Assembly: GCA_963768655.1 (NCBI GenBank)
Contig: CAVYIM010000003.1
Span: 512,001-576,000, forward strand
DNA: 64,000 nt
From: an uncultured Chloroflexia bacterium
GTDB taxonomy: Bacteria; Chloroflexota; Limnocylindria; Limnocylindrales; CSP1-4
Direction of reading: 5' to 3'
Position numbers and translations under genes: made by a program
The notes under the pieces: generated by a model
Told to the model about the DNA's origin: nothing
Databases searched by the model: none
What the model saw: only the letters and a program-made list of their open reading frames with translations
Shown: positions 1 through 16,141 of the stretch, piece by piece
Layout of the letters: each line of letters starts with the position of its first letter
How positions within the stretch are numbered: position 1 is the first letter of the stretch

Positions 1-20
1 CTTGCGAATTGGCAGCTCGT

Positions 21-1482
21 TCATAGCGCGGACCGATGCCGGGACCAGTGGCGTGCGGCGCGCGTCGACATGATCCGCTTCTGCTCCGACCCAGTAGCAC
101 CGATGGGCCCCGAACGACCCGACGGGGACGAGCCTCCACGGATACTCGCGGCCACAGCCCGCTCGGCCGGACTCAGCCCCGATCCGGCGTAGTGGAAGCT
201 CCGCCGGATGACGACCTGGTCGCCGACGGCCTTGGCACGGATCTGGGTGAGCCAGGGGTCGGCCGCGGCTCGATACTCCGCCCGGACGGCTCGCAACGCC
301 GCGAAGGTGACCGAGTAGCGACGGGCCTTGGTCAGGAAGTGGCCACGGAAGCCCAGGTTATGGGCCCAGCGTGGGCTCAGGGTCCAGGCCGATCGCATCA
401 GCGCGCGGGCATGATCCGAGAGTTCGGCTCGCTCGATCACTCCCTCCACCCGGATCCGTCGGTCCAGACCACCGCCTGATTGCGCGTCCTTGGTGGCGTA
501 CTTGGCGAGGTAGCCCGCGACGCCGGCTCCGTGCCCCTCGCCGGCGCGCTGGCCACCGGTGTTCAGCGGTCTCGTGTCGATCTGGCTACCCCAGCGGATC
601 ACGAGCTCACGTCCACCCGGTCCCGCCACCGTGACCGCTACGCGCGCCGCGGTGCGGGCGACGGCCTCCGCTAGACGCTGCGCCGTCGCTCCGCCCGCGG
701 GCGCGGTGTCGGGACCGTCGGGGCCGTCGAGCCGGATGACCGCATGGACGTGTACCGATCCACGGGCCTGGAACTCGGCGACCTTGGCATAGGCGACACG
801 GACCTGGGCTCGCAGGGCCGCTACGCTCAGATCCGCTCAAGGCTGCGAGCTCGCGCGGCAGGTACGTGATCGTTCGCCGCCACAGGGCTCCAAGGTTCGC
901 GTTCCACAGAGCCGCGGCCTCGTAGTCATAGCAGTCCGGACAGATTGCCTGGCCGATCCGGGGATCGTCCTCGGCGTGACGATCGAGACAGCGCATCGGG
1001 ATGCCGTGCGAGCAAACCTCTGCCTGGCCACCGAGCCGGCAGCTGCGGACGCCACCGGCATCGACAACTCGGCGATGCACCGCCCCGAACGAGGGTGCGG
1101 TGAACGTCGCGAAGACGAGCGGGTGCGAGGCAACCGCGGAGGAGACTCCTCGGGCCTCGTCGCCTCTGAGTCCCGCTGCGACGAGGAAGTAGGCGTCGCG
1201 GCGATACCGCTCCGAGCAGGGCGGACAGCGCGACTCGCGTCGGTTGCCACAGGCGACGAGGACGAAGCCTGGGGCCTGAGACCGCGTCGATCGCCGGGCG
1301 ACGACTGCGCCGGTCCTTGCCGAGACCGCCACCGACTCGCCTTCCAGGCGGATCGGCGAGGTGCAGCCGCCGGTCCGCCGGATCAGTTCCACGACCGCCG
1401 GTGCGCCGGCTCCGTAGCGGTGCGCGAGGACCGCGAGCGGCGCCGGCGATAGAAGCGGCGATGGGGACGCAGGAGGAACCAC
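21..1482 (-). CDS. repSA: RepSA-type (pSAM2/AICE) rolling-circle replication initiator, with a +1 frameshift near 831
   Basis: The N-part (GGCTSPIRL, CGNRRESRCPPCS, FATFTAPSFGAVH, CPDCYDY) joins, after removing one base at ~831, to YAKVAEFQARGSVHVHAVIRLDG (HUH motif) and YLAKYATK (catalytic Tyr) in the 21..629 frame. Start is approximate. Confidence 0.85.
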
Positions 1483-1493
1483 GGGGACCGGTC

Positions 1494-1919
1494 CTAGCCG
1501 GCCTGCTCGGGGCGGCGCAGAGGCTGCGGGACCTGGGCCTTCGGTGTCGCTGCGCGGACGGCGGTGGCCCGGAACGACCACGCCAGGCGCGGGCGAGAGC
1601 CCGAGGTATCCACGTAGCCGGTTGCCGTCAGGCCCTCGAACGAAACGGCCGGGAACGGCGATCCCGCCGGCGCCTGTGGCAGAACGGGCGGGTTGCGGGC
1701 CGCGATCTTGACCTTCACGACCTTGGTCCGCGCCTCGGGATCGGCGTCGAACACCGAGATCGCCCACAGTGGCAGACCAGTTTCGCGATCGTGCGCCTGG
1801 ACACGCTGCTCTGGCGTAGAGGCATCGAAGTCGATGACTTGCTCTACGGCTCCGATCGCGTATGCCCCCGAAGGGAAGACCTGGTCCATCGTGACGGGGA
1901 TGTGTCTGCCAATTGCCAT
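1494..1919 (-). CDS. pra: Plasmid replication, integration and excision activator (Pra-like)
   Basis: VFPSGA...DRETGLPLW.ISVFDADPEAR..VKVKIAA..PPVLP..P..SPF..V.FEGLTAT.YV...RLAWSFRA matches the AICE Pra family. AGGAGG RBS; lies directly upstream of repSA. Confidence 0.8.
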   Translation of the reverse strand: MAIGRHIPVTMDQVFPSGAYAIGAVEQVIDFDASTPEQRVQAHDRETGLPLWAISVFDADPEARTKVVKVKIAARNPPVLPQAPAGSPFPAVSFEGLTATGYVDTSGSRPRLAWSFRATAVRAATPKAQVPQPLRRPEQAG

Positions 1920-2116
1920 GTCATGACCTCCTTGTCTGATTTCGAACAGCCAGAATCAGCCGACGCTTTGCTCACAGCTATCGCAAGCTGAGGAGCTCGT
2001 GCGGCTCCGAAAACTGGGGGCGAGCGCTCGTTCTTCGGTCCGGAATGCCTTACCGGGACCTGGGCCAGTCGCCATCCAAGACGCTAGGCCGACCAACCGG
2101 GAGAGTCAAGGCTTCT

Positions 2117-2138
2117 GCGTACCATCCCGCGTACCATC
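2117..2138. repeat. 10-bp direct repeat GCGTACCATC x2 (period 12), possible integrase arm-type site
   Basis: Copies at 2117-2126 and 2129-2138. The function is inferred. Confidence 0.3.
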
Positions 2139-2306
2139 GGCGACAAATTCCGATGAAATCACCGTCATGAGGTGTGGAGACGTCACCCCTGAGCTAGAAC
2201 GACAGCCGAAAGGGTCCTCGAAGCCGACAGGCGCACGCTGGAGAGCGGAACCGTTTGCGACTTCGTCGGATCGCTGCGACCGGCGAGTGTGGCCCGATGC
2301 GCGGGG

Positions 2307-2720
2307 TCATCGGGCGGGTTCGCCTCCTATCGCCGCGATCCGCTCATGGAGGTCGCCGGGAGGGGCGGGGCTTGTTACAACTTTCTCTACTGCATCAAGA
2401 CCCGTGATCGTGCCTGCGGAGCGGGCGGCGCGGGCCGCCAGCGAAACATCGGCTCGATCTTCCATGGTGTAGACGTCGGTGCAGTTCTGGCTGCCGGCGG
2501 GTGACGGCGCGATGGGTGCAACGGTGCTCGGCGCTATGGACGCGGACGCGCTGGGCATGCTTTCGGACGAGATCGCAATGATCGAAGGGGTGGGTCCGGG
2601 CGTTGGGGATGCTGCCATGGATCCGGTGGAGGCGACCCGGATGGACAGAGCCGCCAACACGAAGACTACGAGGACTGCGATCAGTGAGAGAGCAGGATTT
2701 GCTCGGCGCACGGTTTTCAC
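2307..2720 (-). CDS. Membrane-anchored/secreted protein; shortened paralog of 3016..3738
   Basis: N-terminal hydrophobic segment, Ser/Pro linker, then a C...TITG...AVEKVV...IAAIGG pattern. The GTG start overlaps the upstream stop (GTGA). Confidence 0.55.
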   Translation of the reverse strand: MKTVRRANPALSLIAVLVVFVLAALSIRVASTGSMAASPTPGPTPSIIAISSESMPSASASIAPSTVAPIAPSPAGSQNCTDVYTMEDRADVSLAARAARSAGTITGLDAVEKVVTSPAPPGDLHERIAAIGGEPAR

Positions 2721-2959
2721 GGGTAGACCGCCTTGATGCCCGAAACGTCACCAGACTGGGGCGTGTAGAAGTTCTCCGGTCCCTGTTTCATGATTTCTGT
2801 AAGGCCGGTGTGGCCAAGGCCCTCCGCGTGACCGAACTCGTGGGTAAGGACTTTGCGCGAGTCGGCGTGGTAGACGTTGCAGCCGCAGGTGGGGTCGTAC
2901 GGATCCGACCAGTCGAAGCCGGGGCGCCTCAGCGCACCAGGCTTGCGGCAATCGGTCGC
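2717..2959 (-). pseudogene. Matrixin/metzincin Zn-metalloprotease C-terminal fragment (not in the ORF track)
   Basis: Manual translation: ...YHADSRKVLTHEFGHAEGLGHTGLTEIMKQGPENFYTPQSGDVSGIKAVYP*. This gives HExxHxxGxxH plus a Met-turn. There is an in-frame TGA at 2960-2962 and no start codon before the motif. Confidence 0.8.
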
Positions 2960-3015
2960 TCATGCCCCGCTCCGGCCCGAGCGGAGCCTGGGCCGTGGCC
3001 AACATGGGCCAGGAG

Positions 3016-3738
3016 CTACGGCACGCGGGAGGTCGACAGCAGCGCACTCGGCGACATCTGACTCCCATCCGGCAGGACTACGCTGCCATTCGTGATGGGC
3101 CAGTTGTCGACCACATCGAAGTCGGCGGCGGGAGCAGCCGTTAGCGATGGCTGGCTCTTGGATGTCAGGAACCAAATGGCACTCAGGCCGACCGAAGCGT
3201 CCGGCTGGCCTGACAGGATGTATGTGCTGCAGCCGACCATGCCGCCGAAGATGCGGACGCGAACCTGACCACCGGCGACTGCCTTGGCAACAGACGAGGC
3301 GTCCGTCTTGCCAACGCCAGTGACCGCGACGGTGACGACCCGATAGACGTCCGTGGCTTCTGGGTTCTTGGTAGGCCTGGAGCCGTCAGCCGTATCAAAC
3401 CGACCGGCACTTACCGCAACGATCGAACCGCTGACCACCGCATCGGAGTGGGCGCTCCAGTCCTTGACGGATGGCTGCAGGGTGAGCGGCTCGGAGATCA
3501 CGGTCTGGCAAGCGGATGAACTGGCTGGCATGACCGAGGCGGCTTCCGACCCCGCAGCTCCGGGGCTACTCGATGGATCTTGGACTGCACCGGCAACCGA
3601 AGTTCCAGACGGGGCGGCGGGCTCTCCGGTCGAGTAGACCCGTGGCAGTATGACCACAACCGCGAGAATGGCGACGATGACGGCGGCGGCCCCAACTTGA
3701 GCTGCCTGACGACGTCCTGGTTGACTCTGACTCCGCAT
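3016..3738 (-). CDS. Membrane-anchored extracellular protein, possible TIMP/NTR-like beta-barrel
   Basis: TM helix, Ser/Ala/Pro linker, then SDAVVSGSIVAV...YRVVTVAV...VRVRIFGGMVG...IWFL. The fold is an inference from the pattern. Confidence 0.7.
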   Translation of the reverse strand: MRSQSQPGRRQAAQVGAAAVIVAILAVVVILPRVYSTGEPAAPSGTSVAGAVQDPSSSPGAAGSEAASVMPASSSACQTVISEPLTLQPSVKDWSAHSDAVVSGSIVAVSAGRFDTADGSRPTKNPEATDVYRVVTVAVTGVGKTDASSVAKAVAGGQVRVRIFGGMVGCSTYILSGQPDASVGLSAIWFLTSKSQPSLTAAPAADFDVVDNWPITNGSVVLPDGSQMSPSALLSTSRVP

Positions 3739-3837
3739 TTCCCACCCCTTCCGCCAAGAGCGGTCGCTCCGAGATCGGCGCTCTCTATGAGTGAGGACAT
3801 CCTGTCGCCTAGAGGCGCGGCAACGGCGCAACCTGCC

Positions 3838-3960
3838 TTACCAAGTCGGCCTTGATTTTGGTGGAACGCACGACACGCAGAAACTCGAGTTGTAGAGGAA
3901 CTGCAGACCCGCGACGTCGCCGCCGGAACTCTGCGCCACTGTGGTCGGAGTTTCTCCCAT
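3838..3960 (-). pseudogene. Possible degraded matrixin C-terminal remnant
   Basis: ...M...QSSGGDVAGLQFLY resembles the last helix of the 2717-2959 fragment (QSGDVSGIKAVY). It sits in the same position relative to the downstream partner gene. Confidence 0.35.
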
Positions 3961-4135
3961 GTATACCGAATTCGGCCAACTCGGGTACAGGGCTAGAGCT
4001 ATGGTGCGCCAGCTATTGAGACAGAAAGCCAGCAGGAACACGAGGCCTCATCGGGCGGTCGCATGAGACCAGTGGCCGCCGCAGACGAGTTGGCATGCGA
4101 GTGCCAATGGGACATTCAGGTCGCCACGCGCCGCA

Positions 4136-4151
4136 ACTCCTCTCGCCCCGA
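4136..4151 (+). repeat. Second copy of putative att core ACTCCTCTCGCCCCGA
   Basis: Exact 16-bp match to 4311-4326. Confidence 0.75.
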
Positions 4152-4195
4152 AGACACCCAGCACATCCGATGACCCACGGACGAGAGCCAACGCG

Positions 4196-5788
4196 TCATG
4201 CACAGCGCACCGAGCGCAGAGGCGGCCTGGCGCCGCCCATAGTCACGAGCACGCGGCCCCGGTGGAGACGTGGGATCCAGATCCCCGAGGAGCGGGTTAG
4301 CCTAGGCCCGACTCCTCTCGCCCCGACCATAACAACCAATCGAGCCCCATTCCAGGCCCCGTCCCACCCTTGAGCCTTCGCTGACGCGCTCGGGTGCAGC
4401 CTCACTTTCCGAGACCCCAGCACATCGATACGCTCGAAGAGAGCCTCCGCTAGCAGCTTGCGACCGGACGGCTCGGCGTCATCCCAGAGCTTGGGCAACT
4501 CGCGAAGCGACTCGACTGCCTCTTGCGGTGTCAGCCCGCCGGCGCGTTCGCCTCTGGCGGCCTGCTCTTCCTGATCGAGCGCCCGCATGGTCGCCTCGAG
4601 GGCATCCGGGTCGCGGTCGCGGCGGTAGCGGGCCATGGCGGCATCACGATCGCGCTCGATGCGCGCGAGGGTCACCGGATCGGGTCCGGACTCATCGGCG
4701 CCGAGCCGGTCAACGACGGCACCCGCAAGCTCGGCATTGGCGCTGACATAGCCCAGAGCCTGGCGGACGAGCCCCTCGAACGCCTCGGCTGGATAGCTCA
4801 CGCCCTTGTGGCGCTTGTCGGTCGAGTTGCGAAAGACCCGTGGCGCGGGCCGTCCGGCGCCCAGCCAATCAGGGCAAGGGAAGTTGTGCCGATAGCGGGC
4901 TTGCTGGCCGATGAGGTGACGGCCGCAGGCGGCGCAGTGGAGCATCGAGAGCGCATAGGGCCGCCGGGTTGTCGGGCGGCCCGGATGGCGGCGGCTGAAC
5001 CGGGAGCGGGCGAGCTGCACGCGGTCCCAGGTGAGCTGATCGATCACGGCCGGAACACGAGTCGCGGTGCCATCACGCAGCCGGCCGATATAGACCGGGT
5101 TGGTCAGGATGCCCCGTGCGGTGTAGAACGGCAGTCCTGTCGCCTCGGCGACTTGCGCGTCGGTCATGCCCTCGGCCGCAGCTGCGAAGGCGGCGCGGAC
5201 CCGCTCGATCTGGGCGGGCACCGGCTCCAGGACCGGCGGCCTGCCGGATCTGATGTAGCCGTATGGCGGCTGGCCGCCGGGCTCACCCAGACGGCGGCGC
5301 TTGGCGGCGAGACCCTCGGATACGCGACGGCCGAGCTTGCGGCTGTAGGACTCGGCCTCGTGAGCCTCCCGCACGAAGTCGTCCCAGCGGTCCGAGTCGG
5401 TGCTGATGATCCGCTCGTCGCAGAACAGGACCGCTACCCCGGCGGCGTGGAGGTCATCGACCGCGATGAGGGTTTGCTTGAGGTTGCGCTGGAAGCGGCT
5501 CACATACCCGACCAGGAGCAGGTCGTATCGGCCTGCTCGCGCGGCTTCGGTCATTGCCGCGAACTCGGGCGCCTGGTACACGGTCCGGCCCGAGGCGGCG
5601 CTCTGCCAGACAAGCCCGGTGTCGACGAGGCCAAAGCGCTCGATGGTCCGGTCCTGAAGCTCGCGCTGGGAGTCCGGACCCCAGTTGTCGTACTGCCCGG
5701 TGGTGGACTCGCGTACCCAGCGGGCCACGCGTAGCCCGGCGATCTGGTCGGTGGAGCGGGGCAGGGCGTGCACGATAGGGCGAGTCAT
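4196..5788 (-). CDS. Large serine recombinase (serine integrase)
   Basis: N-terminal resolvase domain (WVRES..Q, VGYVSRFQRN), recombinase domain (GGQPPYGY, ILTNPVYIG), Zn ribbon (LHCAACG...FPC) and coiled coil. Confidence 0.95.
   Translation of the reverse strand: MTRPIVHALPRSTDQIAGLRVARWVRESTTGQYDNWGPDSQRELQDRTIERFGLVDTGLVWQSAASGRTVYQAPEFAAMTEAARAGRYDLLLVGYVSRFQRNLKQTLIAVDDLHAAGVAVLFCDERIISTDSDRWDDFVREAHEAESYSRKLGRRVSEGLAAKRRRLGEPGGQPPYGYIRSGRPPVLEPVPAQIERVRAAFAAAAEGMTDAQVAEATGLPFYTARGILTNPVYIGRLRDGTATRVPAVIDQLTWDRVQLARSRFSRRHPGRPTTRRPYALSMLHCAACGRHLIGQQARYRHNFPCPDWLGAGRPAPRVFRNSTDKRHKGVSYPAEAFEGLVRQALGYVSANAELAGAVVDRLGADESGPDPVTLARIERDRDAAMARYRRDRDPDALEATMRALDQEEQAARGERAGGLTPQEAVESLRELPKLWDDAEPSGRKLLAEALFERIDVLGSRKVRLHPSASAKAQGWDGAWNGARLVVMVGARGVGPRLTRSSGIWIPRLHRGRVLVTMGGARPPLRSVRCA
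4311..4329 (+). other. Putative att core resembling the tRNA-Pro 3' end, inside the recombinase gene
   Basis: TCCTCTCGCCCCGACCA resembles the T-stem/acceptor/CCA end typical of bacterial tRNA-Pro, but is not preceded by a GGTTCRA T-loop. It encodes MVGARG in the recombinase. Confidence 0.65.
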
Positions 5789-5968
5789 AGCTCAATCACG
5801 GCATAGAGTCCAGAGACCGGCGGCCGGCCCGGCGGGCGTGAGCCTGGCGGATGCAGACCGCCAGCGCCCGGACCAGCGGGTCAGGGGCAGCCAACCCGGC
5901 GGACTCCCGCGCCGGAACCAGCCGGCCCTGACGTTGCCCGGCTCCGTTGGACCGCCGGGCCTGGCCGC

Positions 5969-6874
5969 TCATCGGGCCTTGCCGCCTTGCCGGCCGGCTC
6001 TGGCTGGCTTGCGGCCGGCTGCAGGGTTCCGGCTGGGGCCGTGCGTGCTGGCACCACCCTGGACCTTGGCTGGTCGCGCGCCGGATGTAGCTGGCTTTCG
6101 GCTGGGCGCTGGCTTGCGGGCGGCTGAACGTCTGCCGGACGAGGCTGGCTTGGGGTTGGCCGTTGGCTTGCCGCCCGGTTTCGTCGAGCTTCCTCGCTGG
6201 GCACGGGGGCCAGCCTGGGCCAGCCTGGTGCTGGCCAGGCGGACCGCCCGCTGGGCCACGTCTCCACCGACCACGCTCGCTCCCCGCTCTGCGGCTCCCA
6301 CCAGCAGGGCTCCCGAGCCGCAGAAGGGGTCCACCACCAGGGAACCCCTGCCAATGGCGGCCATCGCGGCTAGCTCACGGCCCAGGCCATCGGGCTTCAT
6401 CGTCGGATACCGTCCAGCCGTGCCAGGCCCGACAGCGGCCACCGATACGAGATCAACGCCAGAGAGAGTCCGGGAGCCAGCAAGGCGCCCAACCAGCACG
6501 AACTCGGTCTGGTGGCGCAGGCCAGCCCCGAGCCCTGGGTACTGACGGTCCCAGGTGATGGTCCGGATGCCGGAGAAGCCAGCCCGCTCCAAGGCGCCGA
6601 TGGCCTCGTGCAGGCCGTCGTTGTTGGTCATGGCCATGAGGACCCCATGGGGCTTGAGCTTGCGGCGGGCAAGCGCGAAGACCCGCCCGATCTGGGGCCA
6701 GGTCAGGCCGCCCGTGAACCAGTCGCGCAGGTGACCGCTGGTCGGGCTGCGGTTGATGCTCGTATACGGCGGGTCCGTGATGACGAGATCGATCGAGCGA
6801 TCGGGCAGCGAGCCCAACAGGCGTTCGGCCGAGACCAGCTCGACGCGGACACGCTCGGACGGCTTAGTGCTCAT
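5969..6874 (-). CDS. Beta-class N4-C/N6-A DNA methyltransferase with a basic C-terminal tail
   Basis: IDLVITDPPY (motif IV) precedes YPTMKP and VVDPFCGSG (motif I). ATG at 6874 has a GGGAGGA RBS and overlaps the Rep stop. No cognate restriction nuclease is adjacent. Confidence 0.9.
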   Translation of the reverse strand: MSTKPSERVRVELVSAERLLGSLPDRSIDLVITDPPYTSINRSPTSGHLRDWFTGGLTWPQIGRVFALARRKLKPHGVLMAMTNNDGLHEAIGALERAGFSGIRTITWDRQYPGLGAGLRHQTEFVLVGRLAGSRTLSGVDLVSVAAVGPGTAGRYPTMKPDGLGRELAAMAAIGRGSLVVDPFCGSGALLVGAAERGASVVGGDVAQRAVRLASTRLAQAGPRAQRGSSTKPGGKPTANPKPASSGRRSAARKPAPSRKPATSGARPAKVQGGASTHGPSRNPAAGRKPARAGRQGGKAR

Positions 6875-8336
6875 AGGGCAGTCCTCCCTCAGGCGGTGGA
6901 GTCCAGGCATACCCTCCACCGGGTAGCCGGTGCGTTTCGAGGCGGCGACGAACGATCGGGAACTCCCAGTCGTCTTCGGTCGTGGCGGCGCCGCAGGTGG
7001 GGCAGATGCGCGGCACGCGGTATTGCTCGAAGCCGAGGTCTCGCAGGACCAGCTCGTCGGCACGCGGCGGTTCTTGCTCTTCGACCTGGACGCGGTAGAG
7101 CGAGCCGAAGCCGGAGACGAGCTTCTGGCGGCGGGTGGCCCAGACGTACTCCCCGATCCGCTCGGGGTCGAGTGAGTCGACGATCCCGTGGGGCTTGCCC
7201 ACGTACTTGAGGACCTCTCGGATCGCACCCTGGCGCGCGGCCGGATCGTCGCGGCTGACGGCCTCCACCCAGACCGACCAGGAGCCCTCGCAGCGCGAGC
7301 TACGGCCATGGCGGCAGTGCTCCCGCTTGCAGGTGATGGTCTGCCAGGTGTCGCGCATCTCGCCCCAGTCGATCCAGGGCGAGTCCATGAGGGTGTGGAG
7401 GTGGGGATGCCAGGTCATCGTGTCTTCGGCGAAGGTGAGATCGCAGGCGACGGCGCCTCCGGCGACCCGCTCGTGGCGATAGGTCTCGCAGTTGCGGTCG
7501 CGGCGGTGGCCCGCATGGACGCATTGCCGCGGGCAGCCTTGGGCGTGGACTTCGCTTGGCGGGTGCACCGGGCAGCGGCTCCGCTGTCGGCCGGTCCGGG
7601 TGGGGCAGCCGGGTTCGCAGCCGGCGGCATGCGCCTCACCCCCGCGGGCGCTGCAGCCCTCGACGCAACGAGGCAGCCGGCAGTCCGGCGCCGCTACCGG
7701 AAGATGGCAAGGATGACCGGGCGCGCCGTCGGGTTCGCCATCGGGTCCGAGGGCGGGCCAGCGCCAGCGGCACGCTCCGCCCGCGATGATGGCCCGGCGA
7801 CGGAGCCTACCGAAGTCGCTCCTCAGCCGCCGAATGCCGGCCTCCAGCTCACCCTGCGCGACGTTGCGAATGGTGAACGTCCAGAAGGCCGGCCGCGCCA
7901 TCTTCTGGGCGAGAGCGTCGTATCGCTCCAGAAGACGGGCCACTCGGGCTCGTTCGCAGTCGGGACAACCCCGGACGTGGCAGGAGAAGGGCGTAGCGAC
8001 GCCAGACCCGCAGCCCTGATGGACGAGAACCCGGACCTGGGTGCAGTCGCGCAGGGCTCCGGCCCGCTCGTCGAACCAGAAGGCGCGCTCCACCTCGCGC
8101 TCCTCGTGAGCGCGACGGCCGCACTCGGAAAGAACATCCGCGAGGTCGAGCTTCGACGCCTCGCGTTGCGCCGGATCGCGGAAGAGCTTGGAGAGTGGGT
8201 CCGCTTGTCCTCTTTGGCGCCTTCTGCGGGCCGATTTCGTGCTGCCACTGTTGGCTTGGTGCCATGTATGGACAGAAGTGGGATGCGCGCGCCGGGCGGG
8301 GACGGGAGCAGTTGCGAGCGCCACCAGACCGTTCAC
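6864..8336 (-). CDS. HUH rolling-circle replication initiator (Rep_1-like) with Cys/His-rich insertions
   Basis: N-terminal C..C..CxxxxCPxC, motif I FWTFTIRN, motif II WHPHLHTLM, motif III EVLKYVGKP, RRQKLVSGFG, and a C-terminal CPTC. Confidence 0.85.
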   Translation of the reverse strand: MNGLVALATAPVPARRAHPTSVHTWHQANSGSTKSARRRRQRGQADPLSKLFRDPAQREASKLDLADVLSECGRRAHEEREVERAFWFDERAGALRDCTQVRVLVHQGCGSGVATPFSCHVRGCPDCERARVARLLERYDALAQKMARPAFWTFTIRNVAQGELEAGIRRLRSDFGRLRRRAIIAGGACRWRWPALGPDGEPDGAPGHPCHLPVAAPDCRLPRCVEGCSARGGEAHAAGCEPGCPTRTGRQRSRCPVHPPSEVHAQGCPRQCVHAGHRRDRNCETYRHERVAGGAVACDLTFAEDTMTWHPHLHTLMDSPWIDWGEMRDTWQTITCKREHCRHGRSSRCEGSWSVWVEAVSRDDPAARQGAIREVLKYVGKPHGIVDSLDPERIGEYVWATRRQKLVSGFGSLYRVQVEEQEPPRADELVLRDLGFEQYRVPRICPTCGAATTEDDWEFPIVRRRLETHRLPGGGYAWTPPPEGGLPYEH

Positions 8337-8557
8337 GGCTGTGCGCCCCGCCGTTCACACTTAGGGCGCGAAGTGGGCCGATGGCCCATCGCAGGAGTGA
8401 AAGAGGCCTGGCGTGCCTTCAGAGCGCCAGACGCGGGATGATCGGGCCTACTCGCGAGACTCAGACGCTTGCGGCACAGATCGGTGCAGGTCCGACGGTC
8501 TGCCCGGCTCCATGTCGGGAGGGGCGTGCCACAGGAGCGGCAGCGGCCCTTGTTCAT
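8333..8557 (-). CDS. Small Zn-finger protein
   Basis: CRSCG...RADRRTCTDLCRKR. ATGA and GTGA overlaps with both neighbours. Confidence 0.7.
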   Translation of the reverse strand: MNKGRCRSCGTPLPTWSRADRRTCTDLCRKRLSLASRPDHPASGALKARQASFTPAMGHRPTSRPKCERRGAQP

Positions 8558-8751
8558 TGGAGGAACCTCGTCGCAAGGACCGCGCCCATGGCTTCCGCGT
8601 CAGAGCGCAACCTCGTCTCGCAGGCCCGGCAACGCGGCCGGCTGCACTTCGCTCGGGATTTCCAGGCATGGCCGCAGCGGGCGCAGACACGCCACGGCCG
8701 GAGCGTCACCTGGACCGTCAGAACCGCTGTTTCGTCTCGCACGCTTGTCAT
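8554..8751 (-). CDS. Small Zn-ribbon protein
   Basis: CARCGHAWKSR....PRCRAC. First gene of the coupled minus-strand operon; start chosen from the RBS. Confidence 0.7.
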   Translation of the reverse strand: MTSVRDETAVLTVQVTLRPWRVCARCGHAWKSRAKCSRPRCRACETRLRSDAEAMGAVLATRFLQ

Positions 8752-8842
8752 CTCGACCCTCTCGTTCGTCGGGCGCAGAGGGTTTCTTACAGCGACAATT
8801 GACGTCGAGGCAAACCAGCCGGCCTCGCGGCCGAGCAATGCT

Positions 8843-9941
8843 CATGCGTGGAACGCGAGAATTGAGCGTGGAAAGTCACGAGGAATTGAGGGCCCGCGGA
8901 AAGGCCTTTCGGCGCGAGCTGGCGGCCTGGCTCATGGCCGATCCGGAAGACAAACCGGACGGGCGGCCCGCCCTGTCGTCCATTCGTCTCACGCGCAGCT
9001 CCCTCTCCGGCGGCGAGGCGTGGGTCGGCAATGCAGCCGTCTCCCTCGATCCCAAGGTCCTGTCGGCACTCGCGTCGGATCGCGACTCGCCCTTCTACGA
9101 CTCGCTCTTCGGGACCGTCCTGCGCGCCTCCGAGCGGGCTATCGATCCGTCGCGCTGGTCCGAGCGAACGGAGCCTCTCATCGTTCGGTATGGACGGGTT
9201 CGGGTCGGGCTCTTCGATTGGACGACCGATCGCGACGCCTTCATCGAGGCGCTACTGGGTCGGCCGGTTCCGTCGACGCCGAGATACGAGCAGCGGGGAC
9301 CGATCCTGCCTGTGATGTCGAGGAGCGACTTCGACTCCGTCCGCGAGCTGCTCGGGGCACGGATGGAGGACAAGATCGCCCTTCTCCACGTAACCGGAGC
9401 CAGGATCGCAAACGGGCTCGACCCTCTCGTGAAGCTGGCAGCGGCCACCTCGTGTTGCGATCCGGTTCGAGCTGCCGTCGGGTATGCGCTGCTGCGCATC
9501 GACCCCCAGGGTTTCGCAGCATCACCATCGGGTCGGATGACGCTGCGGGCCATGGGGGCGGCACCGCGGGGGCGCACGCCTCGGCTAGACATGGAGCTTG
9601 CCGGCGTCTTCGACATCGACCTTGCCGGCTATCTCGGGCTGGTCTTCTGGAGCGGCGCGAAGCAGCTGCGCTCATACCGGGCCACCATGGCGGCGCATCT
9701 GCGGTATCTGTTCGACTACGAGGTCGCGCCACAATGCCGCTGGCCCGACGAGCGCACGCGGCGCGAGGCGCTGATGGTCTGGTTCATGGATCGGTTGGCC
9801 CGCTTGGCGGAGCCTGGTCAGCGCGTTACCAGATCGAAGATCGCCCGGGCCTTGCGCCGGGAGCACCCAGGCGACTACGAAGGCGAAAACGAGGCTGTGA
9901 CTGTCCGTAGGGTGTACCGAGTTTCGGCAAAGCTTACGTAA
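8843..9941 (+). CDS. Hypothetical protein, possible C-terminal HTH (divergent regulator?)
   Basis: Long ORF with protein-like composition. The C-terminal VTRSKIARALRR...VTVRRVYRVSAKL is HTH-like. Start uncertain (8837-8867). Confidence 0.6.
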
Positions 9942-10385
9942 GAGCGACCCAAGTCGAACAATTCAGGCGACCAGCAGACCATGGCTGGGAGGCGAGCTAC
10001 TTCGCGAAGACGCGTCCGCCCGGTCGCGGCCCGCCGAGGGCCGGCAGGAGGCAACCCGTGTGTCGTCCGCCAGATCGTCGCTTCCGACCGAATTCTAGGA
10101 GGCGCGCCGCACCAATTCGCAGCAACCGCCCGCAGGGGTGCGGGAACTAGCCACCCTGGGGGCGTGCATCTGAATCCCGGCGAGCCAGAACTGGGCGACG
10201 TGCCTCTTGTCGGTGACGACGACGTGGCCCTCGCCTGTAGAGACTTGCTGGTAGTCCACCTGAACGACCGCCTAGCAGAGGCCTGGCAGTCGACAACATC
10301 GGCGAGTCCGCGGAAGCCACGTTCCCCGTTCCTGCCAACAATCTGGCGTTCGTTTTGCACAACATGTTGGGAGGGAGTTGCGCTG

Positions 10386-10868
10386 GTGAACACAGACGCG
10401 TTCGACGACCGATATGAGGAGCTGCTCGCGGACTTGCGTCGCGTGTGCCGGGCGGTCGGTGCCGGGGACGAAGCGGAGGACGTGGCTCAGGAGACGCTCT
10501 GGTATGCCAGGGCCCGGCTAAGCGAGCTCCGTGATGACTCGAGACTGGTGCCTTGGCTAAGGAAGATCGCAGTGCGCCACGCCTGGCGGGCTCATGGGAG
10601 GCCCGTCGAAGACCTCCATAGCGTCCTCATCGCGGCACCGACGATCCCCGTCGAGCTTGCCATCGACGAGCGTCGCGCATTGGTTGCCCTCCCACGACGT
10701 GAGCGGGAGGTCGTGATGCTGGTGTACATCGCTGGCTTTCGAGAGGAAGAGGTGGCATCGATGCTCGGCGTGTCAAGAGGAACGGTGGCGAAGACTCTCT
10801 GGAGAGCCCGATGCAGCCTCTCTCGATCACTATCGGACTACTCAAGGAGCGGAATGCCATGTGGTTGA
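10386..10868 (+). CDS. ECF RNA polymerase sigma factor
   Basis: Region 2 (EAEDVAQET, WLRKIA) and region 4 (LPRREREVV...EEVASMLGVSRGTVAKTLWRAR); GGGAGGGAG RBS. Confidence 0.9.
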   Translation: MNTDAFDDRYEELLADLRRVCRAVGAGDEAEDVAQETLWYARARLSELRDDSRLVPWLRKIAVRHAWRAHGRPVEDLHSVLIAAPTIPVELAIDERRALVALPRREREVVMLVYIAGFREEEVASMLGVSRGTVAKTLWRARCSLSRSLSDYSRSGMPCG

Positions 10869-12262
10869 AAGCCCGCGGCCATCTCGATGACGAATGCATC
10901 TCCAGGTTTGTAGACCATGTGCGGGAGCTCAATTCACGCCAGCGTAGCCACCTCGACAAGTGCGACGCATGTCGCGCCAGGGTCGAAGGACACAGGCGGG
11001 CGCGCGACATGCTGCTCCGATTGAACGAAACAGTGCCTCTGCCGACATCCGGCCGCAGGAGTGGCCTTCGTGAGGCTGGAGCTCATCCGCTTCTGGTGGC
11101 CGGTGCCGCCGTGATCGTGATGGTCCTAGTCGTAAAGGTTGTCGTGGCTGGCCGTGGCGGCTACGTTAGCGCTGACTTGGGTGCGGCCACAGCCAAATCC
11201 ACCACGCCGTCGCCATCCTCGTCCGCCTCGCCATCCTCGTCCGCCTCGCCGTCCCCTTACTACAGCGGCGACTGGATTAGGCTTGGATCATCTGAGGTCA
11301 TGGGCGTGGTATGGTCGCCTGACGGTTCGCATCTGTTGGTCTGGTCCGAGCCCTATGCTGGGCAGACGCGCCACTTCCAGTTGCTCGATGCCAACGGTAG
11401 CGTGGTGAGGTCATTCGACGCGGAGGCTGCCGCTTGGATGGATTCGAGCACGTACGTCGTCCAAGAGTCAAGCACATCGCTCTTCGAAGGTCTCGGCAAC
11501 AACCAGGAGGCTAATGCGGGGGTATCGCTGGGCTCGGGATTGCTCAGCAACGGCCATGGAGCCGTCGCGTACATAGCGAACGATGGACAGGCGGTCTCGG
11601 ATCGACCCGGGCTTTCGGATCGGTTCGCCGTTCTCACCCGCAACGGCGCGACGCAGCCGATGCCAGGACGTCCAGCGGCGTGGTCGGAGGATGGCAGCGA
11701 GCTTGCTGTCTGGCACTACACCAGTGGATCTGGAGGAGTGGGAGGGCAGCCCTCAGGGTCGATGTCGGTGCTCGAATGGCCGGGATTGAGACAACTCGCA
11801 CAGTGGCCGGACATTGCCGTGGGCTCGACTCCCGTTCGCTTTGATCCAACCGGACGATACCTTGAGGTTGCCGGGTCGGCGTTTAGCATCCTGGACATCG
11901 CGACGGGTCGCGTTGTACGACCCAGTGGTGCTACTGGCCAGACGCCCGTCTGGGACGCCTCCTCTCACCTCATCGTCCCGAGACTCGATGGGACCGCGGC
12001 TACGTATGCCCTGGACGGCAGCCTCAAGGCGACGCAGGCGGCGGCAAATTCTGCAGCGGGCTCGGCGAACGGACAGACCGTGCTGTACTTCTGGTGGGAG
12101 TCACAGCGACCAATTCTCGTATCGATTGGCGCCTCTGTGCGAGATGTCGATGTGCCGGGAGTCCTCTGGACCTACCCGGAGGTGTCAGCCGACGGATCGA
12201 GGATCGCTATTCTGTGTCGTGTTTCGTCTGACTATGAAGCGTTTCTCCTCACGAGCCAGTAG
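10859..12262 (+). CDS. Zn-binding anti-sigma factor with TM helix and extracellular beta-propeller
   Basis: HLDKCDAC (HxxxCxxC), TM, SPSSSA linker, and WSPDG/WSEDG/FDPTG/VSADG propeller repeats. Overlaps the sigma gene. Confidence 0.85.
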   Translation: MWLKARGHLDDECISRFVDHVRELNSRQRSHLDKCDACRARVEGHRRARDMLLRLNETVPLPTSGRRSGLREAGAHPLLVAGAAVIVMVLVVKVVVAGRGGYVSADLGAATAKSTTPSPSSSASPSSSASPSPYYSGDWIRLGSSEVMGVVWSPDGSHLLVWSEPYAGQTRHFQLLDANGSVVRSFDAEAAAWMDSSTYVVQESSTSLFEGLGNNQEANAGVSLGSGLLSNGHGAVAYIANDGQAVSDRPGLSDRFAVLTRNGATQPMPGRPAAWSEDGSELAVWHYTSGSGGVGGQPSGSMSVLEWPGLRQLAQWPDIAVGSTPVRFDPTGRYLEVAGSAFSILDIATGRVVRPSGATGQTPVWDASSHLIVPRLDGTAATYALDGSLKATQAAANSAAGSANGQTVLYFWWESQRPILVSIGASVRDVDVPGVLWTYPEVSADGSRIAILCRVSSDYEAFLLTSQ

Positions 12263-12495
12263 ACGAGTGCAGGTTCCGCCGGTTCTGCCACCTGATTCCG
12301 TCGCGGACTGAGGTGGCCAATTCCGTGGAGTGCGCAGACGAGGGCGGTTGCGCGGCCGGGCTCGTGAATTCACGGCACAGAAATGTCAATCGAGTGGAGG
12401 TGCCACGCCTACTTCGGCAACTTCTGCATGACGGGCGCCGAGACACTGACCGACCCCGGCGCCCATCATACGATCATATGTGCCCCACACCAGTC

Positions 12496-13829
12496 TCAGT
12501 TGGCCTGGGCAGTGCTCACTTTGTATGCATGCCCACTGATGGGGTCAACATAAACGTCACCGCCACTGCCGTCCTGTCCATGCACGAACGGCGTAAAGGG
12601 CGAATTGCTGCCATCAATTGACGCCCAGACAAGGTGCCCGTCCCCATGCAGCCCGGCCGTCTGCATGATACTCCCCCGCTCAGTCGTCGAAGTCAGATCC
12701 CAGCCATCGGGAAGCGTGGAGGCTCCTGCATATGTGTAGCCGTTGGGGCCGTCGGCCACCATCGCGACTGCACGAACTTCCGCCCCCACCCGGACCTCAA
12801 CGAGCTCGTATGGCGCAACATCCGGCGAGAACGAGTCGACATGAGTAATGGCTCCGAGCGTGTAGCCTGTCAGGTCAATTCCGAGCCTGCCCTTGTCCAC
12901 TTCGTTCACGGCCAAGCCGTCGGCTACTGCGGCGGCTACTGTCGGTCGGGTTATGGCGGGCCCGAGCATCTTGCCGCTCATCGTGTCCTGAGTCACTGAC
13001 GTTGATCTGCTTGTCTGACCCGCCGTCGCTGCTGCTGCTGCCGCTCCGTTGTACTGGCTGGCCTGCCAATCGCCGTACGTCTCGCCCGGGCTGTCGCTGG
13101 GGACGGCATTCGCATACATCTGAAGAACGGTTACGTAGTAACTCGTCCAGAAGGGCCCCGCACCACCATAGCCACTCATGTTCGGACTCAGCCAGGAGCT
13201 CGTGTTCCAGGTCGAGATGGGAACGTTCGAATGCGCGTTCGTGTATGGATCGAACACGTAGAAACTGCTGATTGAGTCGGTGCCGTCAGAAAACGGGTCT
13301 CGAGTCGTGACGTAACCAGTGGTCAGGATCGCGTGACGTCCGGAATTGACGATAGCGCCATCAGGTCGCCCGGTTCCCCTAATGCCGTAGACCAGTTCCC
13401 AGTCTGCCGTGAAGGCACTGCTGTACCGGTAGTCGTTGAAGAACCAATTGCCAGGTGTATGCCAGTAAAGTGCCCAGCCTCGCCACGCGGATCGTGACCA
13501 TAGGTGCCGCTACCATCAGAGCACGGGCCGCTACTGTGCGCCTTCCAGTTGTACTTGTCCCCTTGGGAACTGTTGTCGACGGTGCTGGTTATCTGCGCGC
13601 TTAGCGACGATTGACTGGGATGAGTGGCACCGGGCACGTAATTCAGCCATGACAGGCTCGAAGCCACGACGCACCAACACGCCGTTTGCTGGTGGACGTC
13701 ATACCCGGACTGCCAGGAGTCTTGAGTGTACGCAGCAGCTCCCGCTGGCGAGAGGCCGGCCATCAAGAACGCCAGGGCGGTCGCGGCGAACGCGCGATTC
13801 CGCTGGCTCGGCCCTGCAAAGTGCACCAT
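12496..13829 (-). CDS. Secreted C39/papain-like cysteine peptidase, with a -1 frameshift near 13477
   Basis: Signal peptide and HQQTACWCVVAS (Gln/Cys). Adding one base continues the frame as WALYWH...GRHAILTTGY (His)...FYVFDP (Asp), joining ORFs 13323..14024 and 12496..13257. Confidence 0.75.
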
Positions 13830-14485
13830 AGGAAGTCCTCCCCGCACAGACACGCTCTGTCGACGGATGTCTGCGCCTACCTCTGGGCGATCATGTCCAC
13901 GCGCCCTCTGCACGTGGTGCTCGCCCAGAGGAAGCGTATCACCCGCTCTGTTCTCGGGGAAAGCTCCGGCGTGTGACGGGCAGGCCGTCGCTACGACAGC
14001 CGCTTTGTCGGCTGCAATATCCAAGGCTGGACAGCAAGGATGGGGACGGCGACCGCGGATCGGAGTGACGTTCGACCTCAGCGGTCAGCAACACCCAACA
14101 TGGCGAGGATCCAGAAAGAGCACCGACACGGCCAAGATCCAGACTCGGTGACCCAGTCTCTGGATCATGTCAGCGTTTTGCCGCCCCCATCGACGAGCAA
14201 GTGGAGTGTAACCCCCGGGTGCGCAGTCAGGCGCCCGTCGCGCCGACCACTACGGCTACGGTCGGGCGGTGCGCGTGGATCATCCGCCTCGCAGGGCGTC
14301 GATCATGGCAGCCGAGGATGTCGCATCTGGAACCACCCCGCGAAGATCGGCCGGCTAGCTTGTTATCTCGGCCTCAAGTCCAGTGGAGTCGACCAACTCT
14401 TCCGTCCCAAGCGTCCGGAGGCGCAGCTCGTCTGGCAGCTTCGTTGGCATCTTCGCCCGCGAACGGTAGCGGTCAGGAACCATCC

Positions 14486-14520
14486 AAATAGAACGCCGCC
14501 CACGCATAAATAGAACGCCG
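14486..14520. repeat. 13-bp direct repeat AAATAGAACGCCG x2 (period 22), candidate integrase arm sites
   Basis: Copies at 14486-14498 and 14508-14520, about 30 bp from the tRNA-Lys fragment. Confidence 0.55.
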
Positions 14521-14549
14521 ACGAACACCCGCGACCTCTCTGGTGCGCC

Positions 14550-14594
14550 CTTTTAATCGGCTGGTCGTGGGTCCGAATCCCACACGGCCCTCCA
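14550..14594 (+). other. 3' half of tRNA-Lys(UUU); att direct repeat at the island boundary
   Basis: CTTTTAA anticodon loop, T-arm GTGGG-TCCGAAT-CCCAC (T-loop variant), acceptor 3' strand and CCA. No 5' half is present. Confidence 0.8.
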
Positions 14595-14658
14595 ACATCG
14601 CGCCGTCGGCCGGCGCGATGGACTCAGTGGCGGTTCGCCGTCAGCGGGCGGCCGCGCC

Positions 14659-16101: not shown

Positions 16102-16141
16102 TTCACGAGACCCGCCGCGACCAGGCGCGGCGTCTCGATTC

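Follow-up and report, generated by a model that had tools for sequence, protein, structure and literature searches.

An integrative element with a large serine integrase and a Rep_1-type initiator in a Chloroflexota genome

Closest described systems

Small integrative mobilizable elements (IMEs) of Firmicutes (Guedon et al. 2017, PMC5704250), as far as the available part of that survey goes, combine a serine or tyrosine integrase with an HUH or rolling-circle protein, carry variable cargo that includes restriction-modification genes, and are inserted into tRNA or protein genes at their 3' ends. In these traits they resemble an element of about 10.07 kb (10,066 bp) at ~4313..14378 of a 64,000-nucleotide stretch of DNA (the window) from an uncultured Chloroflexia bacterium, which encodes a large serine integrase and a Rep_1-type HUH initiator of rolling-circle replication. 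The initiator or relaxase families given for IMEs in the same part of the source are Rep_trans/MobT, Rep_2, PHA00330, and Viral_Rep, not Rep_1, and many occur together with the coupling protein TcpA (PMC5704250). The element of the window differs from the Firmicute elements in its Rep_1 protein, the absence of a coupling protein, and the phylum of its host. The window represents positions 512001 to 576000 of contig C3 of the source assembly, G000, which comprises 3.37 Mb with 68.8% G+C in 9 contigs (C1 to C9) and is 88.6% complete. Positions to the left of the window start are given as negative numbers, related loci are numbered L0xx, and G006 is the genome of a relative.

The pSAM2-type elements of actinomycetes (actinomycete integrative and conjugative elements [AICEs]) integrate, excise, and then replicate by rolling circle. 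As Ghinet and coworkers reportedly described in 2011, they contain int, xis, RepSA, and an FtsK-like Tra, have a size of 9 to 24 kb, and use tRNA targets. The island that surrounds the element agrees exactly with this outline in int, xis, and RepSA, but the element itself has Rep_1 and, within 4313..14378, no replication gene of the RepSA, RepAM, or prim-pol type, a serine instead of a tyrosine integrase, and no FtsK/SpoIIIE-like translocase, a domain (PF01580) matched only on contig C7 in G000. Because the element lacks RepSA and an FtsK-like translocase, and because Rep_1 is not among the families listed in the available part of the IME survey, it should be neither an AICE nor one of the listed streptococcal IMEs. 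In its proposed mode of working it resembles the Firmicute integrase-plus-initiator elements and the pSAM2-type elements, and it probably belongs to neither group.

Single parts of the element have further counterparts. Three motifs of the initiator (motif I, HUH, and the tyrosine motif ExxKY) recur in the Rep proteins of the pC194/pUB110 plasmids (Rep_1), but the initiator is twice as long and has, in addition, a Cys cluster and an inserted segment of about 150 aa. It belongs to an integrative replicon, and this replicon does not contain CTTGATA, the nick sequence of pC194-type (Rep_1) double-strand origins. The large serine integrases of phages are composed of resolvase, recombinase domain, zinc ribbon, and coiled coil, an arrangement that the integrase of the element may share, and the binding of phiC31 gp3 at the base of the zinc domain and coiled coil, as announced in the title of PMC5814800, is similar to the prediction made below for a 58-aa protein. 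In contrast to the phage integrases, the integrase of the element would target a tRNA gene with 17 bases common to attP and attB, and attP would be located in the reading frame of int. We know of no described serine integrase with both a tRNA target sharing 17 bases and an attP in the int frame. A literature search, which covered titles, listings, and a few passages, found no account of such an integrase or of a Rep clade shared with PRD1-like viruses. Finally, PM2-like and double jelly-roll viruses (Yutin et al. 2018, PMC5894146) resemble the contigs of some Rep relatives (~8 to 21 kb) in the combination of a packaging ATPase with a capsid gene, and the initiators named for them in the available part of the source are phiX174-like or M13-like, not Rep_1. 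Such an ATPase and capsid gene are absent from the element of the window. The PM2-like viruses are said to have been treated by Krupovic and Bamford in 2007.

The features that would distinguish the element from all these systems are the tRNA target of a large serine integrase, the attP within the int frame, and an initiator clade in common with PRD1-like viruses. A family of small integrative replicons in little-studied soil and peat bacteria is defined with base-level ends. The integrase with its predicted attP and attB (tRNA-Pro) and a candidate miniature directionality factor are parts wanted for genome engineering. One replication gene common to plasmid-like elements and tailless capsid-encoding viruses bears on the exchange of modules between viruses and plasmids, and a sigma/anti-sigma pair or restriction systems ride as cargo on such elements.

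Ends, integrase, and attachment sites

The ends of the element at ~4313 and 14378 were set by nucleotide comparison with related loci. This comparison shows a delimited and recurrent integrative element with intact genes and a variable cargo. It is probably a plasmid-like integrative element in its own right, about 10.07 kb in size, in which the serine integrase and the Rep_1 protein would support a cycle of excision and replication; we infer this replication, and also a transfer. The element is real and mobile and belongs to a small, uncharacterized family. Its conserved core starts with the gene for a 366-aa protein and continues, divergently, with the genes for a zinc protein, a 74-aa zinc protein (Zn74), Rep, a DNA methyltransferase (MTase), a 58-aa protein, and the serine integrase. 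All core open reading frames (ORFs) of the window copy are intact. Scans with Pfam, PHROG, and PADLOC and a tblastn search recognized no capsid, packaging, or conjugation gene in the element, and Rfam had no match at E <= 1 in window positions 1..16000.

A preliminary description of the locus, made from the DNA sequence, had placed a compact integrative element with an HUH initiator of the Rep_1 type, a DNA MTase, and a serine integrase at 4196-9941. The domain matches bear out this gene content, while the conserved ends extend the element to 14378 and begin it at ~4313. The five genes listed in the same orientation on the minus strand and the divergent ORF at 8841..9941 are all present, and the overlaps at 8554-8557, 8333-8336, and 6864-6874 follow from the ORF coordinates; a sixth gene of the same orientation at 5796..5972 had been missed, and the zinc-ribbon gene likely starts at 8751. 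The lack of capsid, packaging, and conjugation genes noted at that time agrees with the Pfam, PHROG, and G000 searches, and the gene set recurs at loci of other genomes, whereas a lack of such co-occurrence had been named as grounds for refuting the description. Since the conserved ends reach ~14378, the genes for a sigma factor of the ECF type and an anti-sigma factor are counted as cargo, as had been suggested. A peptidase gene had also been named as possible cargo, but the cargo genes matched no peptidase family.

The gene of the large serine integrase (4196..5788, minus strand) matches the resolvase domain PF00239 with E 1.3e-13 (residues 25-166) and the integrase family phrog_95 with E 9.4e-47 (residues 11-463); the Recombinase domain PF07508 reached 17.5 bits, under the cut-off of 21.1. 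All of the 7 sequences compared have R26, E27, S28, and T29 and the cysteines C285, C288, and C305, and S28 should be the nucleophile, as judged from its position. In the integrated state the protein has 530 aa. Residues 1-492 (4313..5788) are native, and the last 38 are read from the flanking DNA, ending at 4196.

On the integrase side, similarity to L010, L017, L014, and L008 ends within the int ORF, at 4299-4313 and just past ATGGTCGGGGCGAGAGGA (window 4330..4313). This near end of the element (4313..4330, minus strand), the predicted P arm of attP, is located inside the int coding sequence and has the same sequence as the tRNA-Pro 3' end. On the far side, a stretch of 29 to 36 bp within 14352..14387 is 97-100% identical in L004, L008, L010, L012, and L017, amid unrelated cargo. 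The far end (14352..14378, minus strand), the predicted P' arm, would encode the last 7 int codons and the stop codon in the circle. A 21-mer core of the far end was found without mismatch in the same 5 of 39 loci compared; a sixth match, in L024, comes from the window itself and was left out of this count. Because none of 100 shuffles of the window contained the 21-mer while it is exact in 5 related loci, its conservation is beyond chance.

The junctions in 6 loci have the P arm ATGGTCGGGGCGAGAGGA and the P' arm CTTGAGGCCGAGATAACAAGC in common and differ in their B arms, as would be expected of hybrid attL and attR sites. From a comparison of all junctions, the crossover was set at GGA, which is TCC in the complementary strand. 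The far-side attB half-site of the window (14379..14400), defined by the junction comparison, reads TGGTCGACTCCACTGGA on the strand of rep, belongs to the surrounding island, and shares TGGTCG...ACTGGA with the site in L004/L008. When the ends are joined in silico, an integrase of 499 aa results that terminates with MVGARGLEAEITS, its stop codon located within the conserved far-end stretch. As the joined ends yield 499 aa and the integrated gene 530 aa, attP should be positioned inside the int reading frame, and the tail of the protein would depend on the state of the element. A contig of the public run X3 joins 14375 to 4313 with a TAA in between, which is an attP-type junction. In this variant, the first codon past the joint is TTA (rep strand) instead of CTT, both encoding Leu, and the synonymous change may be taken as a small hint of a constrained reading frame. 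A single joint from 4316 to 14355, with 27 letters on its short side, fits neither attB nor attP and was set aside.

In 3 of 9 loci scanned (L005, L006, and L014), int extends with its last ~40 to 60 bases into a tRNA-Pro gene of the opposite strand. In L014, the 17 terminal bases of the element constitute the tRNA-Pro 3' end itself, and the same 17 bases are present at the far junction. This indicates that the usual target should be the T-arm/acceptor end of tRNA-Pro and that the element restores the tRNA. A direct repeat, TGGTCGGGGCGAGAGGA, is located at both ends in L010, L014, and L017. Measured by the same end marks, related elements have sizes of ~10.6 to 12.3 kb. In L010, with a unit of ~11.6 kb, a second, upstream integrase ORF that is only 50% identical ends at the far end of the element, similar to a tandem array. 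Contig C4 of G000 contains a second, degraded copy of the integrase end (C4:539015-545524), in which int is 80-82% identical but interrupted near residue 79; the copy retains a Zn74-like fragment, no Rep or MTase was detected, and ~2.5 kb of other DNA separates the P arm from a copy of the conserved block described next.

The integrase-side flank of the window copy is a conserved block (4130..4312) of about 150 to 200 nt, which belongs to the RepSA island and supplies an attB half-site. Copies with 85-91% identity are located at C2:55288-55486, C6:188260-188417, C8:96108-96254, and C4:545435-545524. Copies of the block with no element beside them are located at the corresponding position of a second RepSA copy, on C6, as well as on C2, C8, and C4 and in some relatives. 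The first ~13 bases of the flank match those of L008 (GTCGGGsCTAsGC). The other block copies end in a tRNA-Pro-like 17-mer, ...CTCCTCTCGCCCCGACCA, and then diverge sharply; the far half-site of the window is TGGTCGACTCCACTGGA. The window copy is read here as integrated into a tRNA-Pro look-alike, that is, a secondary site, within an island of the RepSA/tyrosine-integrase type. For positions 4130-4312, Rfam gave no hit at E <= 1 and ARAGORN no tRNA call, and an interpretation of the block as a tRNA-like RNA was therefore dropped. As the 3' end of a protein gene it was also rejected: C2, C8, and C3 keep the tail frame, yet the ORFs preceding it are short and not related, and no long ORF runs through the block. 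One hairpin in the block shows a compensatory change in the C4 copy. In two peat and permafrost runs, the summed contig depth of the block was 33 to 355, compared to ~2 to 8 for the adjacent integrase gene.

Directly upstream of int, between MTase and int, the gene for the 58-aa protein (5796..5972, minus strand) encodes a candidate recombination directionality factor. Its C-terminal DPLVRALAVCIRQAHARR is invariant in all 5 aligned sequences, and the motif is also present upstream of int in L006/L014, L007, and L010 and in the degraded copy on C4. The DNA of the gene differs between loci at third codon positions, synonymously, which indicates that the protein is under selection. A model of the complex of integrase residues 1-492 with the 58-aa protein scored 0.80, while the best control scored 0.26; the mark of the complex was attained by 58 of 80 solved complexes and by 2 of 110 mismatched pairs. 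Three runs of the model shared at least 64% of the contacts, with a predicted local distance difference test (pLDDT) value of the partner of at least 51. The contacts connect residues 31-48 of the 58-aa protein with integrase residues 350-365 and 418-473, and the model supports binding to the base of the coiled coil and zinc domain. Directionality factors of serine integrases act via the zinc domain and the coiled coil and have no common fold, according to the parts available of three sources (PMC5814800, PMC11795197, PMC11722253). The 58-aa protein is a better candidate for an excision factor than the zinc proteins, for which this function had been proposed in the preliminary description and for which no evidence was obtained. 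Element A of L010 encodes a 122-aa protein, the gene of which reaches into the integrase start; this protein combines a Zn74-like N terminus (E 9.5e-07) with a C terminus weakly similar to the 58-aa protein (tblastn E 0.032), a fusion that hints at an action of Zn74 on the integrase as well.

The initiator, its relatives, and alternative explanations

The Rep_1-type HUH rolling-circle initiator (6864..8336, minus strand) comprises 490 aa and matches PF01446 with 41.2 bits at a cut-off of 33.2 (E 1.7e-10). An alignment of 25 homologues contains the motifs FWTFTIRN, WHPHLHTLMD, and EVLKYVGKP. The residues H312, E374, K377, Y378, and K381 are invariant in the 25 sequences, and H314 is present in at least 90%; the Glu and Tyr residues are those that we take to be equivalent to the Glu and Tyr of the pC194 protein. 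Residues 278-434 are 25-30% identical (E 1e-5 to 8e-4) to the "protein rep" of 13 plasmids of 2.0 to 3.0 kb. The assignment to the family is based on the HUH and tyrosine motifs together with these matches to plasmid Reps. An N-terminal Cys cluster, CxVRGCPDCERAR, matches Zn_Tnp_IS91 weakly (E 0.0011), and a Cys/His-rich insert of ~150 aa is located between motifs I and II, which the most distant homologues do not have. A transposase of the IS91 type was rejected because only one tyrosine is conserved, the Zn_Tnp_IS91 match is weak, as given above, and the ends are sites of the integrase. A search of the Rep profile against the sequences of the Protein Data Bank (PDB) gave no match at E <= 1. 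In a large protein collection, 40 homologues were found, nearly all of them unnamed, and 39 of the 40 carried a precomputed PF01446 assignment.

Twenty loci with Rep relatives, 3 from genomes and 17 from metagenomes, were scanned by tblastn with the window proteins. The 3 genomic loci come from two metagenome-assembled genomes (MAGs) of Chloroflexi/Chloroflexia and one MAG labelled Candidatus Sulfotelmatobacter. An MTase gene directly follows rep in 11 of the 20 loci (L004, L006, L008, L009, L010, L011, L012, L014, L016, L017, and L018) and precedes it in one (L005). A serine integrase is encoded downstream in 9 (L004, L005, L006, L007, L008, L010, L014, L016, and L017), and several other Rep contigs stop short of the integrase position. 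Zn74 is upstream of Rep in 12 loci, a second zinc protein is present in 5, and the 366-aa protein in 3. These counts exceed the number of independent cases, since L004/L008 and L006/L014 are duplicate sequences. The cargo differs and includes a XamI-type restriction enzyme with an MTase in L010 and an MTase-Mrr fusion in L012. Rep was found in 5 of 401 genomes drawn from the phylum (E <= 1e-10), which, together with the degraded integrase copy on C4, supports mobility. The identical elements of L006 (DASPUH010000127.1) and L014 are located at a tRNA-Pro(CGG) gene, and binning assigned the contig to Candidatus Sulfotelmatobacter (Acidobacteriota), whereas the remaining named hosts belong to the Chloroflexota. 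Either the host range is wide or the contig was misbinned.

In a mechanism that combines these data, the large serine integrase would recombine attP, located within the 3' part of the int coding sequence, with tRNA-Pro at its T-arm/acceptor end or with look-alikes of this site, with a crossover at GGA/TCC, so that the element provides the last 17 bases of the tRNA and the last 7 int codons are swapped for flanking sequence. Binding of the 58-aa protein, perhaps with Zn74, to the coiled-coil base of the integrase would direct the reaction towards excision. The excised circle may then be nicked and copied by the Rep_1-type initiator in rolling-circle mode, which would maintain the circle or generate a transferred form, and the orphan MTase may protect the DNA of the element in a new host.

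Several observations weigh against this interpretation. The Pfam Rep_1 match is limited to positions 7-81 of the 253 of the profile. No origin was found, with zero matches of CTTGATA in the 10,066 bp; a single CTTGAT is located inside a cargo gene, and the origin sequence in this Rep clade may differ from CTTGATA. No transfer function was recognized in the element. The window copy is positioned away from tRNA-Pro, although G000 has three tRNA-Pro genes. Its far-side half-site differs from the other block copies at 8 of 17 positions, and the reconstructed attB is derived from the likeness to one pair of loci, L004/L008. The complex score of 0.80 is the model's own confidence and was obtained with shallow alignments of 7 and 5 rows. 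The joint from 14375 to 4313 would be explained just as well by an element inserted at tRNA-Pro, as its far end. The public runs were 23 in number, all available as assembled contigs, and the best contained 0.47 of the sampled words, and uncovered parts carry no meaning; the 4 runs compared gave no support from an excised circle, an empty site, or copy depth.

Alternatively, the element may be an integrative mobilizable element in which the Rep_1-type protein acts mainly as a relaxase, nicking an oriT for the conjugative pore of a helper, with replication as a secondary function. The layout of integrase, HUH protein, and cargo in ~10 kb fits such an element, and, in the available part of the survey cited above, relaxases akin to rolling-circle initiators are found in most streptococcal IMEs, the Rep_1 initiators of three Firmicute plasmids also function in mobilization by ICEBs1, and the border between initiator and relaxase is blurred (PMC5704250). 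However, no related element examined contains a coupling protein. In G000, FtsK_SpoIIIE (PF01580) matches a chromosomal gene only (C7:170744-171275), and AAA_10 and T4SS-DNA_transf had no match, an absence that is no proof in a genome of this completeness. A role mainly as relaxase is judged unlikely.

Some relatives of the Rep are encoded next to putative virus genes. The Reps on L013 and L015 (51-52% identical) and on L021 and L023 (27-43% identical) are encoded upstream of a P-loop ATPase of ~220 aa and a protein of 325 to 400 aa (L013:4676-6682, L015:5103-7098, L021:7615-9652, and L023:8728-10761) and adjoin neither MTase nor integrase. The 325-to-400-aa protein, whose family has 364 representatives, was modelled with a pLDDT of 88.9 as a double jelly-roll capsid protein, similar to P3 of PRD1/PR772 (E 6e-23 to 1e-21, TM 0.78 to 0.83) and to the capsid protein of Bacillus phage Wip1 (E 1.7e-27). 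These contigs look like small tailless viruses that would replicate with a Rep_1-type initiator. A far-reaching extension of the mechanism would make the in-frame attP a state switch, with the 499-aa LEAEITS tail in the excised form and a site-dependent tail in the integrated one, that sets the direction together with the 58-aa binder, and would make the family also the capsid-less partner of unrecognized Rep_1 PRD1-like viruses, whose particles it borrows to move between conjugation-less cells; this combination is distinctly improbable. A derivation of the element from small tailless viruses of the PRD1/PM2-like kind with the same Rep, as a capsid-less derivative or satellite spread by packaging in their particles, agrees with the position of the L013 and L015 Reps among the clades of the integrase elements in a 16-row Rep tree with an unresolved backbone, and with the similar sizes of the elements (10 to 12 kb) and the capsid-gene contigs. 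However, 8 ATPase and capsid proteins from L013, L015, L021, and L023 had no tblastn hit in G000, and no Rep relative was confirmed in IMG/VR (2.9 million contigs, 53 pattern matches, none confirmed) or matched in the 50,697 phage records of INPHARED, and such an origin would be a real surprise. No PHROG structural family was found among the 6 core proteins, and the 253-aa and 233-aa cargo proteins and the anti-sigma factor had no Pfam hit.

The surroundings of the element, overlooked in the preliminary description, provide the last alternative. Immediately left of the window there are a tRNA-Lys(TTT) gene (-1814..-1740), a tyrosine integrase gene, and a gene for an HTH_17 protein similar to Xis (the neighborhood to the left of RepSA is L003:8186-10024). 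The outer island encodes a RepSA of the pSAM2 type in two overlapping ORFs (21..1767, minus strand), which match PF20199 with E 4.4e-67 (profile positions 4-196) and E 8.3e-37 (266-436), and ends at its attR (14550..14594, plus strand), a 45-bp exact copy of the tRNA-Lys 3' end that is identical to -1784..-1740. In G006, the FGGY kinase gene (window 14659..16170) is directly beside tRNA-Lys, with no island. Because the 45-bp repeats bound the stretch of 16.4 kb and G006 has the empty site, the stretch is regarded as a tRNA-Lys island. It contains tyrosine integrase, Xis, and RepSA, and no FtsK-like translocase is encoded in the island or in the nested element, which is located ~170 bp from the right end of the island. 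That the module is fixed cargo of this island, moving, if at all, only via the tyrosine integrase, would agree with the exact repeats around the stretch from tRNA-Lys to 14594, the absence of the whole stretch from the same site in G006, the foreign tail of the integrated int, and the atypical reconstructed attB, but is hardly credible, because no core ORF is broken, RepSA is missing from related elements that have the same ends and the module from the RepSA copies on C6 and C9, two findings that argue for an element independent of the island, and the nesting is compatible with independent excision.

Remaining genes of the element and its neighborhood

The orphan DNA MTase (N6/N4; 5969..6874, minus strand) matches PF01555 with E 1.3e-13 (51.9 bits versus 26.7), phrog_67 with E 1.7e-17, and the type II MTase models of PADLOC. 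Its translation contains the DPPY motif in DLVITDPPY and a K/P-rich C-terminal tail. No restriction enzyme was recognized in the window copy of the element. Upstream of rep and overlapping it by 4 bases, the gene for Zn74 (8333..8557, minus strand) encodes a 74-aa protein with four cysteines (CxxC...CxxxC) without a family hit. The adjacent gene for a zinc-ribbon protein (CxxC...CxxC; 8554..8838, minus strand) also gave no family hit. As a GAGG upstream of the ATG at 8751 and the ATG itself are conserved in 4 of 4 aligned loci, this is most likely the true start, resulting in a protein of 65 aa. Homologues of the zinc-ribbon protein are present in L009, L012, L016, L018, and L019, and in L004, L008, and L017 a gene with an XRE-type helix-turn-helix (HTH) is located in its place.

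The divergent intergenic region (8752..8840) contains, in an alignment of four loci, a conserved stretch similar to ACGTCAATTGTCGC and presumably harbors promoters or operators. On its other side, the divergent gene (8841..9941, plus strand) encodes the 366-aa protein, which had no Pfam, PHROG, NCBIfam, or PADLOC hit and which is presumed to be a regulator. It has 25 homologues, none with a Pfam domain. Its model (pLDDT 73) matched nothing in the PDB at E <= 0.001 with Foldseek, and a wide structure comparison (VIA) gave a best Z of 5.6, confined to residues 295-365. The 65 C-terminal residues are weakly similar to a winged helix; the ORF of the preliminary description is real, and the HTH suggested for it has weak fold support (Z ~5). 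In a protein atlas, the 366-aa protein is near unnamed clusters only, at 0.89 to 0.90. The gene at the divergent position always encodes 340 to 440 aa but belongs to at least 3 mutually unrelated groups by BLASTP (9 loci), and its type changes together with that of the first gene of the operon, for a zinc ribbon or an XRE-type HTH protein. The two genes may form an exchangeable control pair.

The cargo starts with the gene for the sigma factor of the ECF type (10386..10868, plus strand, start approximate), with matches to Sigma70_r4_2 (E 1.2e-11), Sigma70_ECF (E 3.3e-05), and r2 (E 0.0023). It is followed by the gene for a probable anti-sigma factor (10811..12262, plus strand), which had no Pfam or PADLOC hit. 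An HxxxCxxC motif (HLDKCDAC), LLVAGAAVIVMVLVVKVVVAG, one membrane helix, and a large outer domain were read from its sequence. Two further cargo genes on the minus strand encode proteins of 253 aa (12496..13257) and 233 aa (13323..14024), both without a Pfam or PADLOC hit; in the latter, a Q...CW motif was seen by eye, with no family assignment. Positions 9894-12275, the sigma/anti-sigma region, are 99.6% identical (9 differences in 2,382 bases) to a contig of a permafrost run, and the region is near-identical in a peat run, too, which indicates nearly the same cargo in distant samples.

In the outer island, the two RepSA ORFs of the window overlap at 607-629, and the pieces of the C6 and C9 copies also overlap there, by 14 bases. 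The recurrence of the overlap at the same junction suggests that the split may be a real frameshift site and not an error. The C9 copy, the third one (C9:287272-290875), is located beside a tRNA-Arg gene and a short resolvase-type serine recombinase, which is 32% identical to that of the window over residues 25-178, and the RepSA backbone seems to pair with different integrases. Between an FHA-domain gene and the tRNA-Lys gene, a transposase of the IS630 family (DDE_3) is encoded at L003:6938-8020 (window -3062..-1980). It is not present at this site in G006, and copies with 97-100% identity are located at three other places in G000.

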